This document shows positions 6,219 through 63,118 of a stretch of DNA of 64,000 nucleotides, piece by piece (the first letter of the stretch is position 1; every line of letters starts with the position of its first letter). Source of the stretch: Escherichia coli (GTDB lineage: Bacteria; Pseudomonadota; Gammaproteobacteria; Enterobacterales; Enterobacteriaceae); assembly GCF_003790525.1 (NCBI RefSeq), contig NZ_CP033635.1. One strand, given 5' to 3'. The position numbers and the translations under genes were made by a program. A model generated the notes under the pieces. The model was not told where the DNA came from. It ran no database searches and saw only the letters and a list, made by a program, of their open reading frames with translations.

Positions 6219-6234
6219 TTGTATTGTGATCGGT

Positions 6235-6312
6235 AAGCCGGATAAGGCGCTCGCGCCGCATCCGGCAACGATGCCGACTGCCTGATGCGACGCTGACCGC
6301 GTCTTATCAGGC
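6235..6312. repeat. REP cluster between yjdM and yjdN
   Basis: GCCGGATAAGGCGC...GCATCCGGC and GCCTGATGCGACGCTG...TCTTATCAGGC palindromic units. Confidence 0.6.
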
Positions 6313-6377
6313 TTCCCTCTCATCTGTATAAATTTCGAACTACACTTAACTGGCTTCTCTTAACTGAGGTCACCATC

Positions 6378-14065: not shown

Positions 14066-14158
14066 CCGGTGCCGGATGCGGCGTAAACGCCTTATCTGGC
14101 CTACAAATGCGCTCCCCGTAGGTCGGATAAGACGCGTCAGCGTCGCATCCGACACCCG
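14066..14158. repeat. REP cluster inside the phn operon, between phnK and phnL
   Basis: GCCGGATGCGGCGTAAACGCCTTATC... and GGTCGGATAAGACGCGTCAGCGTCGCATCCGAC units. Confidence 0.6.
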
Positions 14159-18966: not shown

Positions 18967-19857
18967 ATGAGCCAGTCAGAGTTTGATTCAGCGCTTCCGA
19001 ACGGTATCGGGTTAGCGCCTTACCTGCGAATGAAGCAGGAAGGAATGACAGAAAACGAAAGCCGCATCGTGGAGTGGTTACTCAAACCCGGTAACCTGAG
19101 TTGTGCACCCGCAATTAAAGATGTCGCAGAAGCTCTGGCGGTATCTGAAGCGATGATCGTTAAGGTATCAAAGCTGCTGGGGTTTAGCGGCTTTCGTAAC
19201 TTACGCAGTGCGCTGGAAGATTATTTTTCTCAGTCAGAACAAGTATTGCCTTCCGAGTTGGCTTTTGATGAAGCGCCGCAGGATGTGGTGAATAAGGTAT
19301 TTAACATCACTTTACGCACCATTATGGAAGGTCAGTCGATCGTCAACGTTGATGAGATCCACCGTGCCGCCCGCTTTTTCTATCAGGCCAGACAGCGGGA
19401 TTTGTACGGTGCCGGAGGATCAAATGCTATCTGTGCTGATGTACAGCACAAGTTTTTACGCATTGGCGTACGCTGCCAGGCCTATCCGGACGCTCACATC
19501 ATGATGATGTCTGCTTCGTTGTTACAGGAAGGAGATGTGGTGCTGGTGGTGACCCATTCCGGGCGAACCAGTGATGTAAAAGCGGCTGTAGAACTGGCAA
19601 AAAAGAACGGGGCAAAGATTATTTGTATAACGCATAGCTACCATTCACCGATAGCGAAGCTGGCCGATTATATTATTTGCTCACCGGCCCCGGAAACACC
19701 GTTATTAGGTCGTAATGCCTCGGCAAGAATATTACAACTAACTTTGCTGGACGCGTTTTTTGTCTCTGTCGCCCAGCTCAACATTGAACAAGCTAATATT
19801 AATATGCAAAAAACCGGCGCAATTGTTGATTTCTTCTCACCAGGCGCGCTGAAATAA
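18967..19857 (+). CDS. rpiR: RpiR-family transcriptional repressor RpiR/AlsR, 296 aa
   Basis: ORF track 18934..19857 trimmed to MSQSEFDSALPNG start; N-terminal HTH plus SIS domain. Confidence 0.9.
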   Translation: MSQSEFDSALPNGIGLAPYLRMKQEGMTENESRIVEWLLKPGNLSCAPAIKDVAEALAVSEAMIVKVSKLLGFSGFRNLRSALEDYFSQSEQVLPSELAFDEAPQDVVNKVFNITLRTIMEGQSIVNVDEIHRAARFFYQARQRDLYGAGGSNAICADVQHKFLRIGVRCQAYPDAHIMMMSASLLQEGDVVLVVTHSGRTSDVKAAVELAKKNGAKIICITHSYHSPIAKLADYIICSPAPETPLLGRNASARILQLTLLDAFFVSVAQLNIEQANINMQKTGAIVDFFSPGALK

Positions 19858-19915
19858 GAAAAAGGTAATTCCGCCATCGCGGAGTTACCTCTCCCCTTAC
19901 CGTGAGAACATGATT

Positions 19916-20851
19916 ATGAATAAATATCTGAAATATTTCAGTGGCACACTCGTGGGCTTAATGTTGTCAACCAGCGCTTTTGCTGCCGCCGAATATGCTG
20001 TCGTATTGAAAACACTCTCCAACCCATTTTGGGTAGATATGAAAAAAGGCATTGAAGATGAAGCAAAAACGCTGGGCGTCAGCGTTGATATTTTTGCCTC
20101 TCCTTCAGAAGGCGATTTTCAATCTCAATTGCAGTTATTTGAAGATCTCAGTAATAAAAATTACAAAGGTATCGCCTTCGCGCCATTATCCTCAGTAAAT
20201 CTGGTCATGCCTGTCGCCCGCGCATGGAAAAAAGGCATTTATCTGGTCAATCTCGATGAAAAAATCGACATGGATAATCTGAAAAAAGCTGGCGGTAATG
20301 TGGAAGGTTTTGTCACCACCGATAATGTTGCCGTCGGGGCGAAAGGCGCGTCATTCATTATTGACAAGCTGGGTGCCGAAGGGGGTGAAGTCGCAATCAT
20401 TGAGGGTAAAGCCGGTAACGCCTCCGGTGAAGCGCGTCGTAATGGTGCCACCGAAGCCTTCAAAAAAGCAAGCCAGATCAAGCTTGTCGCCAGCCAGCCT
20501 GCCGACTGGGACCGTATTAAAGCACTGGATGTCGCCACTAACGTGTTGCAACGTAATCCGAATATTAAAGCGATCTATTGCGCGAATGACACGATGGCAA
20601 TGGGTGTTGCTCAGGCAGTCGCAAACGCCGGAAAAACGGGCAAAGTGTTGGTCGTCGGTACTGACGGCATTCCGGAAGCCCGCAAAATGGTGGAAACCGG
20701 ACAAATGACCGCGACGGTTGCCCAGAACCCGGCGGATATCGGTGCAACGGGTCTGAAGCTGATGGTTGACGCTGAGAAATCCGGCAAGGTTATCCCGCTG
20801 GATAAAGCACCGGAATTTAAACTGGTCGATTCAATCCTGGTCACTCAATAA
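19916..20851 (+). CDS. alsB: D-allose ABC transporter periplasmic binding protein AlsB, 311 aa
   Basis: ORF track 19910..20851 trimmed to MNKYLKYFSG start; signal peptide. Confidence 0.93.
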   Translation: MNKYLKYFSGTLVGLMLSTSAFAAAEYAVVLKTLSNPFWVDMKKGIEDEAKTLGVSVDIFASPSEGDFQSQLQLFEDLSNKNYKGIAFAPLSSVNLVMPVARAWKKGIYLVNLDEKIDMDNLKKAGGNVEGFVTTDNVAVGAKGASFIIDKLGAEGGEVAIIEGKAGNASGEARRNGATEAFKKASQIKLVASQPADWDRIKALDVATNVLQRNPNIKAIYCANDTMAMGVAQAVANAGKTGKVLVVGTDGIPEARKMVETGQMTATVAQNPADIGATGLKLMVDAEKSGKVIPLDKAPEFKLVDSILVTQ

Positions 20852-20857
20852 AACTGA

Positions 20858-20948
20858 ATGATGCCGGATGGTGATGCTAATGAAGTGTCTTATCCGGCCA
20901 ACAAAATAACCTGAACGTAGACCTGATAAACGTAGCCCATCAGGCAAT
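20858..20948. repeat. REP cluster between alsB and alsA
   Basis: GATGCCGGATGG...CTTATCCGGCC and GACCTGATAAACGTAGCCCATCAGGC units. Confidence 0.6.
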
Positions 20949-32592: not shown

Positions 32593-34740
32593 ATGAAAAA
32601 AGTCGTCACGGTTTGCCCCTATTGCGCATCAGGTTGCAAAATCAACCTGGTCGTCGATAACGGCAAAATCGTCCGGGCGGAGGCAGCGCAGGGGAAAACC
32701 AACCAGGGTACCCTGTGTCTGAAGGGTTATTATGGCTGGGACTTCATTAACGATACCCAGATCCTGACCCCGCGCCTGAAAACCCCCATGATCCGTCGCC
32801 AGCGTGGCGGCAAACTCGAACCTGTTTCCTGGGATGAGGCACTGAATTACGTTGCCGAGCGCCTGAGCGCCATCAAAGAGAAGTACGGTCCGGATGCCAT
32901 CCAGACGACCGGCTCCTCGCGTGGTACGGGTAACGAAACCAACTATGTAATGCAAAAATTTGCGCGCGCCGTTATTGGTACCAATAACGTTGACTGCTGC
33001 GCTCGTGTCTGACACGGCCCATCGGTTGCAGGTCTGCACCAATCGGTCGGTAATGGCGCAATGAGCAATGCTATTAACGAAATTGATAATACCGATTTAG
33101 TGTTCGTTTTCGGGTATAACCCGGCGGATTCCCACCCAATCGTGGCGAACCACGTAATTAACGCTAAACGTAACGGGGCGAAAATTATCGTCTGCGATCC
33201 GCGCAAAATTGAAACTGCGCGCATTGCTGACATGCACATTGCATTGAAAAACGGCTCGAACATCGCGCTGTTGAATGCGATGGGCCATGTCATTATTGAA
33301 GAAAATCTGTACGACAAAGCGTTCGTCGCTTCCCGTACAGAAGGCTTTGAAGAGTATCGTAAAATCGTTGAAGGCTACACGCCGGAGTCGGTTGAAGATA
33401 TCACCGGCGTCAGCGCCAGTGAGATTCGTCAGGCGGCACGGATGTATGCCCAGGCGAAAAGCGCCGCCATCCTGTGGGGCATGGGTGTAACCCAGTTCTA
33501 CCAGGGCGTGGAAACCGTGCGTTCTCTGACCAGCCTCGCGATGCTGACCGGTAACCTCGGTAAGCCACATGCGGGTGTAAACCCGGTTCGTGGTCAGAAC
33601 AACGTACAGGGTGCCTGCGATATGGGCGCGCTGCCGGATACGTATCCGGGATACCAGTACGTGAAAGATCCGGCTAACCGCGAGAAATTCGCCAAAGCCT
33701 GGGGCGTGGAAAGCCTGCCTGCTCATACCGGTTATCGCATCAGCGAGCTGCCGCACCGCGCAGCGCATGGTGAAGTGCGTGCCGCGTACATTATGGGCGA
33801 AGATCCGCTACAAACTGACGCGGAGCTGTCGGCAGTACGTAAAGCCTTTGAAGATCTGGAACTGGTCATCGTTCAGGACATCTTTATGACCAAAACCGCG
33901 TCGGCGGCGGATGTCATTTTACCGTCAACGTCATGGGGCGAGCATGAAGGCGTGTTTACTGCGGCTGACCGTGGCTTCCAGCGTTTCTTTAAAGCAGTTG
34001 AACCGAAATGGGATTTGAAAACGGACTGGCAAATCATCAGTGAAATCGCCACCCGTATGGGTTATCCGATGCACTACAACAACACCCAGGAGATCTGGGA
34101 TGAGTTGCGTCATCTGTGCCCGGATTTCTACGGTGCGACTTACGAGAAAATGGGCGAACTGGGCTTCATTCAGTGGCCTTGTCGCGATACTTCAGATGCC
34201 GATCAGGGGACTTCTTATCTGTTTAAAGAGAAGTTTGATACTCCGAACGGTCTGGCGCAGTTCTTCACCTGCGACTGGGTAGCGCCAATCGACAAACTCA
34301 CCGACGAGTATCCGATGGTACTGTCAACGGTGCGTGAAGTCGGTCACTACTCTTGCCGTTCGATGACCGGTAACTGTGCGGCACTGGCGGCGCTGGCTGA
34401 TGAACCTGGCTACGCACAAATCAATACCGAAGACGCCAAACGTCTGGGGATTGAAGATGAGGCATTGGTTTGGGTGCACTCGCGTAAAGGCAAAATTATC
34501 ACCCGTGCGCAGGTCAGCGATCGTCCGAACAAAGGGGCGATTTACATGACCTACCAGTGGTGGATTGGTGCCTGTAACGAGCTGGTTACCGAAAACTTAA
34601 GCCCGATTACGAAAACGCCGGAATACAAATACTGCGCCGTGCGCGTCGAGCCGATCGCCGATCAGCGCGCCGCCGAGCAGTATGTGATTGACGAGTACAA
34701 CAAGTTGAAAACTCGCCTGCGCGAAGCGGCACTGGCGTAA
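32593..34740 (+). CDS. fdhF: Formate dehydrogenase H (selenoprotein, molybdopterin enzyme), 715 aa with in-frame UGA at 33010-33012
   Basis: Track ORFs 32593..33012 and 33061..34740 are in the same frame, separated only by a TGA followed by a stem-loop (SECIS); N-terminal Fe-S motif CPYCASGC. Confidence 0.95.
33010..33055 (+). other. UGA selenocysteine codon plus bacterial SECIS stem-loop of fdhF
   Basis: In-frame TGA followed immediately by CACGGCCCATCGGTTGCAGGTCTGCACCAATCGGTCGG hairpin. Confidence 0.8.
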
Positions 34741-34833: not shown

Positions 34834-35523
34834 ATGAAAAAAATTATCGCATTGATGTTGTTTTTGACATTCTTTGCCCACGCGAACGACTCCGAGCCTG
34901 GCAGCCAGTATTTAAAGGCAGCAGAGGCTGGGGACCGACGCGCACAATATTTTCTTGCCGACAGCTGGTTTAGCTCCGGCGATTTGAGCAAAGCCGAATA
35001 TTGGGCACAGAAAGCCGCCGACAGCGGTGATGCTGATGCCTGCGCGCTGTTAGCGCAGATCAAAATCACCAATCCGGTCAGTCTGGACTATCCACAAGCA
35101 AAAGTTCTTGCAGAGAAAGCGGCGCAAGCGGGCAGTAAAGAAGGTGAAGTAACGCTGGCGCATATTCTGGTAAATACGCAAGCGGGTAAACCGGATTATC
35201 CAAAGGCGATTTCGCTGTTAGAAAACGCCTCGGAAGATCTGGAGAACGACTCTGCCGTCGATGCCCAAATGCTGCTTGGTTTGATTTACGCCAACGGCGT
35301 GGGCATTAAGGCCGACGATGACAAGGCAACCTGGTATTTCAAACGCAGCTCTGCGATTTCCCGAACCGGTTATTCCGAGTACTGGGCGGGAATGATGTTC
35401 TTAAACGGTGAAGAAGGTTTTATCGAGAAGAACAAACAGAAGGCGCTGCACTGGTTGAATCTGAGCTGTATGGAAGGGTTTGATACCGGGTGTGAAGAGT
35501 TTGAAAAATTAACTAACGGTTAA
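34834..35523 (+). CDS. yjcO: Sel1-repeat protein YjcO, 229 aa
   Basis: ORF track; signal peptide; Sel1/TPR-like repeats. Confidence 0.88.
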   Translation: MKKIIALMLFLTFFAHANDSEPGSQYLKAAEAGDRRAQYFLADSWFSSGDLSKAEYWAQKAADSGDADACALLAQIKITNPVSLDYPQAKVLAEKAAQAGSKEGEVTLAHILVNTQAGKPDYPKAISLLENASEDLENDSAVDAQMLLGLIYANGVGIKADDDKATWYFKRSSAISRTGYSEYWAGMMFLNGEEGFIEKNKQKALHWLNLSCMEGFDTGCEEFEKLTNG

Positions 35524-35680
35524 TGTAGGCCTGATAAGACGCGTTAATCGTCGCATCAGGCGTTGATGTCGGATGCGGCGTAAACGCCTTATCCGACCTA
35601 CAAAATCACGCTAAATCAGGCTATTGCGCTGTCTGACGTAGGCCTGATAAGACGCGGCAAGCGTCGCATCAGGCATCCAC
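35524..35680. repeat. BIME: at least three REP units between yjcO and gltP
   Basis: Alternating AGGCCTGATAAGACGCG...GCATCAGGC and CGGATGCGGCGTAAACGCCTTATCCGACC units. Confidence 0.65.
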
Positions 35681-35714
35681 ACATTGCCGGGTGGATATCC
35701 CCGGCAATCTTCAA

Positions 35715-37028
35715 TTATTGATCCGCAGTTTTATCAAATTTGCCCAGCACTTCGCGCTCATAAGCCAGCGCTTTCTTACGGTCAAATTTGTGTTCCCACT
35801 TGGCAATCACCAGCACCGCCAGCGCATTACCCACCACGTTCAGCGCAGTACGCGCCATATCGAGGATACGGTCAACACCGGCAATAAATGCCAGACCTTC
35901 CAGCGGAATACCTACGCTACCCAGCGTTGCCAGCAGCACCACAAACGACACGCCCGGCACGCCAGCAATCCCTTTCGAGGTCACCATCAGCGTCAGCACC
36001 AGAATGATTTCCTGCCAGATGGACAGGTCAATGCCATACAACTGCGCGATGAAAATAGCGGCAATACTTTGATACAGCGTCGAACCATCAAGGTTAAAAG
36101 AGTAACCGGTCGGCACCACGAAACTGGTGATCGACGCCGGTGCACCGTAGGCTTCCATCTTCTCAATAATTCGCGGCAGCACGCTTTCAGAACTGGCAGT
36201 GGAGTACGCCAGAATCAGCTCATCTTTCAGAATACGAATCAGGATCCAGACGCTTAACCCGCACAGGCGCGCCACAATTCCCAGCACTACCAGCGCGAAG
36301 AACAGAATGGCGAAATGCACCAGCAGCACCAGTTTCGCCAGTGGCCACAGAGAAGAGAAACCAAAGTTAGCCACCGTCACCGCAATCAGCGCAAACACAC
36401 CCACCGGTGCATAACGCATCACCATGTGAGTCACTTTAAACATGGTTTCAGAGATGGAGCGGAACACGGTCACCAGCGGTTCACGATGCGTCGCGGGCAG
36501 GGATGAAAGCCCCAGACCAAACAGCACCGAGAAGAAGATGATCGGCAGCATTTCGCCTTTCGCCATCGACGCCACAATGTTCGTCGGCACCAGCGACAAA
36601 ATCGTGCCCATAATGCCGTGGGAACTGCTTTGTACCGCTTCCGTAGTGCTCTGATATTTCGAGATATCGACGGTCGCCAGCTGCGACATATCCACCCCGG
36701 CACCGGGCTGGAAGACGTTCGCCAGAGTAATCCCCAAAATGATGGCGACGGTGGTGATCACCTCGAAGTAAATAATGGTTTTCGCGCCAATACGCCCGAG
36801 CTGTTTGGCATCACCAACACCCGCGATACCCACCACCAGCGTGGAGATCACAATCGGCACAACAATCATTTTGATCAGATGGATGAAGATATCACCCGCC
36901 GGAGAGAGCAAATTGACGACCAGCCAGTCGCGACTGTCGCTATGGTAGTGCAGGTAGCTTCCCAGGAGAATGCCCAGCACCATAGCAAACAGAATCTGCC
37001 AGGCCAGGCTGAATTTTATATTTTTCAT
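35715..37028 (-). CDS. gltP: Proton:glutamate/aspartate symporter GltP, 437 aa
   Basis: ORF track; dicarboxylate/amino acid:cation symporter family. Confidence 0.95.
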   Translation of the reverse strand: MKNIKFSLAWQILFAMVLGILLGSYLHYHSDSRDWLVVNLLSPAGDIFIHLIKMIVVPIVISTLVVGIAGVGDAKQLGRIGAKTIIYFEVITTVAIILGITLANVFQPGAGVDMSQLATVDISKYQSTTEAVQSSSHGIMGTILSLVPTNIVASMAKGEMLPIIFFSVLFGLGLSSLPATHREPLVTVFRSISETMFKVTHMVMRYAPVGVFALIAVTVANFGFSSLWPLAKLVLLVHFAILFFALVVLGIVARLCGLSVWILIRILKDELILAYSTASSESVLPRIIEKMEAYGAPASITSFVVPTGYSFNLDGSTLYQSIAAIFIAQLYGIDLSIWQEIILVLTLMVTSKGIAGVPGVSFVVLLATLGSVGIPLEGLAFIAGVDRILDMARTALNVVGNALAVLVIAKWEHKFDRKKALAYEREVLGKFDKTADQ

Positions 37029-42308: not shown

Positions 42309-43787
<1,479 letters not shown>

Positions 43788-46099: not shown

Positions 46100-46222
46100 A
46101 CAATTGCCGGATGCGATCCGGGCAACAAGTCGGAAACGATTTGTAGGCCTGATAAGACGCGACAGCGTCGCATCAGGCATTGATTGCCGGATGCGGCATA
46201 TAACGCCTTATCCAGCCTACAT
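46100..46222. repeat. REP cluster between acs and yjcH
   Basis: TGCCGGATGCGATCCGGGCA, AGGCCTGATAAGACGCGACAGCGTCGCATCAGGC and TGCCGGATGCGGCATATAACGCCTTATCC units. Confidence 0.65.
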
Positions 46223-51899: not shown

Positions 51900-52052
51900 T
51901 ACAATTAAAGCATCAACACCAACCGGAACCTCCACCACGTGCTCGAATGAGGTGTGTTGACGTCGGGGGAAACCCTCCTGTGTACCAGCGGGATAGAGAG
52001 AAAGACAAAGACCGGAAAACAAACTAAAGCGCCCTTGTGGCGCTTTAGTTTT
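51900..52052 (+). ncRNA. ryjA: Candidate small RNA RyjA convergent with soxR, ending at shared hairpin terminator
   Basis: K-12 has sRNA RyjA between soxR and ghxP; here a GC hairpin plus T-run (~52025-52052) reads as a terminator on the + strand; a TACAAT -10-like element near 51900; boundaries approximate. Confidence 0.3.
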
Positions 52053-62885: not shown

Positions 62886-63079
62886 GCGATGGTTCTCCAG
62901 GTTTACGGGCAGGTGGTTAAAACACAATAAACCGGAAGAAGGCGAAGATCGAGTGGATGTTCAGGGGCGAACGGCAATTAGCAACAGAGTGAGACTCATG
63001 ACAAACGTACATCCGCCAGAGGCACGACCTTCATAAGAGCATGAAAGAATATCAACTTATTGAATTGGTAGGCTTTTAT

Positions 63080-63118
63080 TGGCCGGATAAGGCATTCACG
63101 CCGCATCCGGCACAGACA
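63080..63118. repeat. Single REP element between tyrB and alr
   Basis: GGCCGGATAAGGCATTCACGCCGCATCCGGC palindrome. Confidence 0.5.

Follow-up and report, generated by a model that had tools for sequence, protein, structure and literature searches.

A short BIME-2-type REP array between the 3′ ends of the converging genes yjcO and gltP in Escherichia coli

Introduction

What is the role of a row of palindromes lying between two genes that are transcribed toward each other? The question is raised by the yjcO/gltP junction in the window, the term used here for the whole 64,000-nt stretch of Escherichia coli DNA that was analyzed. A preliminary description of this junction is confirmed here as an observation, and its first interpretation is supported as essentially right except for one part, which concerns IHF. 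The element itself is already known: it is an ordinary member of the REP/BIME family, at a locus that has appeared in the literature before, and the sole notable property of the array is its copy-number polymorphism between strains. Since REP and BIME elements have been catalogued in E. coli from the 1980s-1990s onward, and the gltP-yjcO locus has already served as a biochemical substrate, the significance of describing one more allele is small. With considerable confidence, we regard the array as a short (one-and-a-half-unit) allele of the BIME-2 type in a shared 3′ region, with roles assigned to it from those of its family.

Organization of the yjcO/gltP junction

Positions 35400-35850 of the window are identical (100%) to positions 4641717-4642167 of the E. 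coli SMS-3-5 chromosome (NC_010498.1), and the allele is referred to below by the name of that strain. The convergence of yjcO on the + strand with gltP on the − strand, as originally proposed, is borne out by the ends of the two open reading frames (35523 and 35715) and by the RefSeq annotation, and positions 35524-35714 constitute exactly the intergenic region between them, 191 nt in length. The preliminary description placed three REP units in alternating orientation in this region, and all three could be located and oriented as Z2, Y, and Z2 (U1, U2, and U3; Table 1). Among the repeated palindromes of E. coli, the REP is the commonest.

Table 1. Features of the yjcO/gltP junction and other REP sites in the window
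Feature	Position	Strand	Remarks
Single REP unit	~567		
REP325 orthologue, one Y/Z2 pair between yjdM and yjdN	6233-6316		top naRNA4 match in the window, 87.5 bits
REP pair, Y and Z2-like unit, tail-to-tail	14071-14153		
REP pair, degenerate	~20866-20945		
yjcO (Sel1-repeat protein)	34834-35523	+	ORF list and RefSeq annotation
yjcO stop codon, TAA	35521-35523	+	GTAG of U1 1 nt further on; first hairpin stem 5 nt further on
U1, Z2-type REP, GTAGGCCTGATAAGACGCGTTAATCGTCGCATCAGGC	35525-35561	+ (GTAG on + strand)	imperfect palindrome, internal mismatch
Head-to-head (S-type) linker GTTGAT	35562-35567		6 nt, between U1 and U2
U2, Y-type REP, GTCGGATGCGGCGTAAACGCCTTATCCGACCTAC	35568-35601	− (GTAG on − strand; CTAC on +)	
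Tail-to-tail linker	35602-35637		36 nt, unstructured, locus-specific
U3, Z2-type REP	35638-35674	+	direct repeat of U1
Non-REP hairpin, ATTGCCGGG-TGGATATC-CCCGGCAAT (N8 loop)	35683-35708		9-bp stem, 6 nt from gltP stop
gltP stop codon (TAA on − strand)	35715-35717	−	
gltP (glutamate/aspartate:proton symporter)	35715-37028	−	ORF list and RefSeq annotation
REP pair, Z2/Y, head-to-head	46143-46220		naRNA4, 69.8 bits

The conserved REP tetranucleotide, located at the hairpin foot, is read as GTAG at 35525 and 35638 and as CTAC at 35598-35601, and the orientations alternate along the array (−, +, − as reported by the tail-motif scan). U3 is offset from U1 by 113 nt and is 92% identical to it. Folding of the RNA from both strands, which had been suggested as a check on the array, gave stable hairpins on each strand, well under the shuffled controls. 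U1 folds with −14.9 kcal/mol on the + strand and −17.5 on the − strand, U2 with −19.2 (+) and −17.4 (−), and U3 with −20.4 (+) and −21.3 (−). Across both strands this amounts to −15 to −21 kcal/mol with z values of −3.9 to −6.0, only 0 or 1 of 200 shuffles being as stable, and for the intergenic region taken whole z is −5.9 (+ strand) and −7.3 (− strand). All three units form two-part stems with an internal loop or mismatch, as is demanded of a REP palindrome of 30-40 nt. Alignment, the comparison that had been named beforehand as able to refute the assignment, likewise places them in the E. coli REP family.

The window as a whole holds 13 occurrences of the REP tail motif CTTATCMGRCCTAC, whereas 0.67 would be expected, and in each of 100 shuffles the count was lower. 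A REP-containing query finds a median of 9 matching places per genome. The array is both extragenic and a member of a high-copy family, as are E. coli REPs in general. It is also the largest REP array in the window, as had been claimed, every other site having at most 2 units (Table 1).

Two classes of REP mosaic are distinguished in the literature: BIME-1, composed of z1 and y units around a long, conserved L linker with an IHF site inside it, and present in single copy, and BIME-2, composed of z2 and y units with a short S linker and present in tandem copies whose number varies between strains (Ton-Hoang 2012, PMC3333891). BIME-2 elements are further described as having a flanking or tail-to-tail motif of type s, l, or r, a class to which the 36-nt tail-to-tail linker may or may not belong. 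Because the yjcO/gltP array combines Z2 with Y units, joins their heads by a 6-nt linker, and occurs in tandem copies that vary in number between strains, it is by its sequence of the BIME-2 type.

Several further elements were observed elsewhere in the window. At 63050-63062 there is an exact match to the IHF consensus (TATCAACTTATTG), with a single REP (63078-63117) some 15 nt away, and the stretch 63050-63117 could be an IHF-associated element of the BIME-1/RIP type. Among Rfam families, SECIS_2 matches at 33005-33059 (+) with 87.1 bits, which corresponds to the selenocysteine insertion element of fdhF, the gene just upstream of yjcO, and the small RNAs STnc630 (403-568, −, 183 bits) and SraL (51912-52052, +, 153 bits) both score over their gathering thresholds.

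Copy-number variation among E. coli strains

A count of REP units across strains, also suggested at the outset, reveals the three units of SMS-3-5 to be one allele of a hypervariable array that ranges from 1 to at least 13 units. Of 5426 complete E. coli genomes, 5419 contain the flanking sequences once, while the distance between the flanks varies. Among the alleles that were fetched, in which REPs were counted by a Hamming scan for the tail motif, the locus contains 1, 3, 5, 7, 9, 11, or at least 13 REPs, and the steps in allele size are multiples of 113 bp throughout. One REP is found in strain 120899 and five in MS1050; three are found in SMS-3-5 and also in O157, there with a 12-nt deletion in the linker; and eleven are found in NC_000913.3 and RP437. 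A diverged lineage, in which the first Z2 unit is degenerate, contains 1 (FDAARGOS_1258), 7 (Eco-15), or 13 tail motifs (EcPF5, with an intergenic region of 827 nt). Viewed by lineage, the locus has 1 REP in many B1-like strains, 9-11 in K-12, and at least 13 in some B2 strains.

The frequency of these alleles was surveyed in a rank-spread sample of 60 genomes, which yielded 27 with 1 REP, 6 with 3, 2 with 5, 2 with 7, 8 with 9, and 2 with 11. The other 13 carried variant or longer arrays, 10 of them variants of the diverged lineage and 3 with flanks more than 722 nt apart. A single REP makes up the commonest sampled allele, and the additional Y and Z2 units are therefore dispensable. The 36-nt tail-to-tail linker was found in 2370 of the 5426 genomes, at 1-6 copies in each and 5638 in total; these per-genome counts mark it as locus-specific and therefore not a family-wide motif.

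The number of units also differs between closely related assemblies. In the K-12 lineage, an MG1655 assembly (CP010444) has 9 REPs and 4 linkers in 530 nt, and others have 11 REPs and 5 linkers in 641 nt, a difference that reflects either instability on a laboratory timescale or collapse of the repeat in assemblies. Derivatives of the B strain have 3 linkers. In the O157:H7-type allele (locus L009, positions 280-300, corresponding to approximately 35607-35618 of the window) the 12-nt deletion lies within the tail-to-tail linker, and the Y unit has two substitutions that disrupt pairs of its stem; decay of the middle unit appears to be under way in that lineage.

Strain SMS-3-5, a member of clade F, has a genomic REP count below 310, among the lowest in E. 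coli (Ton-Hoang 2012, PMC3333891). This published count fits the contracted alleles seen in the strain, which has 3 REPs versus 11 in K-12 at yjcO/gltP and 2 versus 12 in K-12 at REP325. The junction in E. albertii, represented by one outgroup genome, displays the same order of Z2, Y, Z2, and hairpin, which suggests, on the basis of that single genome, that the three-unit state is old in Escherichia.

The array would be expected to grow and shrink in 113-bp steps, through recombination or slippage between repeats or through cleavage and strand exchange by RayT (TnpAREP). The frequent one-REP allele is shorter by exactly 113 nt, as would also follow from simple recombination of U1 with U3. TnpAREP has been shown to cleave the MG1655 gltP-yjcO BIME (B319) in vitro at four linker sites, including GACC|TACA (Ton-Hoang 2012, PMC3333891). 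The same GACC|TACA is present in the SMS-3-5 allele at 35595-35602, at the left junction of the tail-to-tail linker, where U2 ends. In this strain rayT is annotated as intact at NC_010498.1 254577-255074 (locus L092, positions 19578-20075), beside yafL; its other neighbor is annotated as flhA, followed by a second flagellar gene cluster. The SMS-3-5 array has the features of a putative RayT substrate, namely a 5′ GTAG, a mismatch in the stem, a C|T site in the linker, and the gene for the enzyme in the same genome.

Proposed function of the array

By analogy with the rest of the family, the array is probably a 3′-end barrier that works in both directions and a partial Rho-dependent terminator between yjcO and gltP. 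In RNA transcribed from either gene, the REP hairpins would block 3′-to-5′ exonucleases, and they would favor pausing and partial Rho-dependent termination. Exonuclease block and termination together would set the 3′ ends of both transcripts and limit antisense read-through into the opposing gene. A further effect might be exerted on translation: U1 begins within 1-5 nt of the yjcO stop codon, a terminating ribosome would have to melt it, and YjcO output may be lowered as a consequence. Liang et al. (2015) reportedly found that a REP no further than about 15 nt from a stop codon stalls the terminating ribosome and triggers trans-translation.

The analogy draws on work in which REPs, without U-tracts, act as partial Rho-dependent terminators (preprint 10.64898/2026.03.23.713779). 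In that study REP325, which is also made of Z2 and Y units, is a partly Rho-dependent terminator as well as an mRNA stabilizer and cuts downstream transcription about 8-10-fold; expression is higher for pairs of converging genes that hold a REP between them; and REP hairpins stop 3′ exonucleases in some contexts, with genome-wide effects on half-life that are not uniform (preprint 10.64898/2026.03.23.713779). Within the supplement of the preprint, gltP and yjcO occur in the differential-expression tables only, and neither is significant there.

Data on Rho exist for the locus in K-12. A region of Rho termination in the gltP sense is listed with its best position at 4,296,545 (+) of NC_000913.3, a Rho score of 10.8, and p = 3e-17 (Adams 2021 supplementary file 2), a datum that pertains to the 11-REP allele, has a resolution of ~800 nt, and comes from a region with multi-mapping reads. 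The best position lies about 110 nt past the K-12 array, inside the 3′ end of yjcO and antisense to it. This suggests that gltP-sense transcription in K-12 crosses the whole array and is stopped by Rho inside yjcO. A curated 3′ end for gltP or yjcO was not found in the Term-seq supplement of Adams 2021, nor was one found in that supplement under the K-12 coordinate prefixes 42957-42960 and 42963-42964, which cover part of the array; multi-mapping of reads in the repeats may lie behind this absence.

At the level of DNA, the array is possibly a gyrase site, again by analogy. The Y unit would offer a preferred gyrase cleavage site at a place where converging transcription would accumulate positive supercoils. 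Gyrase cleavage sites are over-represented in BIME-2 elements, lie mostly in y units independently of transcription, and are found in a subset of the elements only (PMC6379681). The SMS-3-5 allele has one Y unit, and neither gltP nor yjcO is named in the supplementary text of that gyrase Topo-seq study (PMC6379681).

The variation in unit number invites a bolder reading, in which the copy number of the 113-bp Z2/Y repeat is a heritable and fast-evolving dial on gltP and yjcO expression across lineages, and the hairpin beside gltP is a relic Y unit co-opted as a gltP-proximal terminator stem. Such a dial would act through Rho-dependent read-through, protection of mRNA 3′ ends, and release of ribosomes at the yjcO stop codon. 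We consider this reading unlikely, and we favor a short BIME-2-type allele with the ordinary roles of its family. The alleles form a natural series in which one and the same gene pair is separated by 1 to 13 REPs, and in which the model of REPs as terminators and stabilizers could be tested. In practical terms, a 113-bp repeat of variable number can mislead genome assembly and could be used as a marker for typing.

The hairpin beside the gltP stop codon

The preliminary description also noted a separate hairpin abutting the gltP stop codon, and this element is indeed present as a distinct stem (Table 1). It starts after 8 nt from U3 and folds with −15 to −18 kcal/mol. Conservation of its stem extends from E. 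coli to E. albertii and, in part, to Citrobacter werkmanii, where ATTGCCGGATGGCG...CGCCATCCGGCAAT has the outer stem in common with the E. coli hairpin. In a covariance-model alignment of 46.7 bits, most of them contributed by U3, the hairpin takes the place of a Y unit's outer stem, in head-to-head orientation to U3. It may represent either a Y REP that has degenerated or an old, ancestral terminator stem.

An alternative for the junction as a whole is that its hairpins, and the one at 35683-35708 above all, are classical Rho-independent bidirectional terminators and that the REPs are passengers without a role. The conservation of the stem in E. albertii and partly in C. werkmanii would agree with this, as would the situation in other Enterobacteriaceae, in which a single strong hairpin follows directly after the gltP stop codon, often preceded by an A-tract and followed by a T-tract. 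Kluyvera and Pluralibacter gergoviae possess such hairpins, with yjcO converging 46-80 nt away, and there the hairpin is a classical intrinsic terminator with a T-tract and a bidirectional appearance. More generally, a scan gave at least 80 loci (Salmonella and E. fergusonii not being among the matches listed), and in other genera with yjcO and gltP in convergent order the junction measures 46-100 nt and contains a single strong hairpin. Just after the gltP stop codon, Enterobacter asburiae, Leclercia, and Pluralibacter sp. UBA7423 have REP-like units of their own, with CCTAC tails. Palindromes able to serve both strands have thus repeatedly occupied the gltP/yjcO junction.

The Escherichia hairpin, however, is flanked by tails, GTGTGGAT and CTTCAATT, that provide a T-tract on neither side, and a terminator scan of 35524-35714 found no intrinsic terminator signature on either strand, the hairpin and the REPs included. 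Because a T-tract is lacking, intrinsic termination was rejected both for the hairpin and for the REPs. Also against this alternative, read-through on the gltP-sense strand in K-12 is under strong Rho-dependent control beyond the array, and a REP is present at the junction in all E. coli alleles examined and in E. albertii. Taken together, these observations render terminators of the classical kind improbable at this locus and leave the BIME-2-type array, with Rho-assisted termination, as the preferred reading.

Assignment of the array within the REP family

The U1 and U2 pair matches the Rfam model RF02564 (naRNA4, a Y+Z2 pair) on the − strand at 35528-35598, with 69.0 bits against a gathering score of 59.5, and the alignment places both hairpins. 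Units of the array are only 1 or 2 bases apart from those of K-12 REP325: for U1 and U3 the differences from the REP325 Z2 units are confined to the loop, and U2 has an outer stem of GTCGG/CCGAC versus GCCGG/CCGGC in the REP325 Y unit, a double change by which pairing is kept. REP325 is composed of alternating Z2 and Y units between yjdM and yjdN, and its RNAs were reported to bind HU (PMC4550694). One could accordingly propose that the yjcO/gltP array encodes a nucleoid-associated small RNA resembling naRNA4, with HU binding and chromosome condensation as its function. The score above gathering and the reported HU binding are in keeping with such a proposal, but RF02564 is in effect a model of a Y+Z2 REP pair, which two other BIMEs of the window also match, and the true REP325 orthologue is located elsewhere in the window (Table 1). 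Ahead of the array, the only promoter-like site is a weak match within yjcO. The laboratories responsible for PMC4550694 reported in a 2026 preprint neither an effect of REP325 or naRNA4 on nucleoid compaction nor a stable ternary complex. An naRNA4 or REP325 identity for the array was rejected, as the Rfam score reflects similarity within the REP family and the REP325 locus is a different one; a small-RNA gene here is very improbable.

Least credible of all, to the point of being nearly negligible, is an IHF-recruiting element of the BIME-1/RIP type that would bend the DNA where transcription units end: the linker does contain a 12/13 match (AATCAGGCTATTG, 35614-35626) to the IHF consensus WATCAANNNNTTR, but its mismatch lies in the ATCAA core, the exact consensus is absent from the array in a consensus scan, one-mismatch matches in the window are at chance level (58 versus 46 ± 7 expected), the O157 allele has lost the stretch by deletion, and the z2 and y units, 6-nt head-to-head linker, and tandem amplification in other strains are unlike BIME-1. 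An IHF site in the array was rejected on the grounds that the exact consensus is absent and the 12/13 match occurs at chance frequency. Of the initial suggestion that BIMEs can bind gyrase and IHF, the gyrase half alone is relevant to the array, which is a BIME-2 without the IHF consensus.

Comparison with known systems

A comparison of the array with bidirectional intrinsic terminators shows that they occupy the same position and likewise consist of a palindrome serving both strands, and they represent the state of the junction in Kluyvera and Pluralibacter. They differ in possessing A- and T-tracts, whereas the Escherichia junction has neither, and termination there is probably Rho-assisted.

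BIME-1 (RIP/RIB) elements resemble the array in their location at transcription units' 3′ ends and in containing a pair of inverted REPs. Their z1 units, long L linker with an IHF site, and single-copy state are all absent at yjcO/gltP.

REP325, the source of naRNA1-6, is closer: it too consists of alternating Z2 and Y units as tandem hairpins, with near-identical sequence and a common Rfam model. Its period is 100 bp with linkers of 13 nt and 17 nt, versus 113 bp with linkers of 6 nt and 36 nt at yjcO/gltP, and it lies between tandem genes of one operon, in contrast to the convergent genes here. In K-12 it comprises 12 palindromic units in an intergenic region of 657 nt, and in SMS-3-5 it has 2 REPs.

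The closest counterpart is the gltP-yjcO BIME of K-12 MG1655, represented by oligonucleotide B319, which has the same flanking genes, Z2 and Y units, linkers, period, and GACC|TACA sequence. The two differ in the loop of U1 (TTAAT) and in the number of units, with 11 REPs in the 641-nt intergenic region of NC_000913.3 versus 3 in SMS-3-5.
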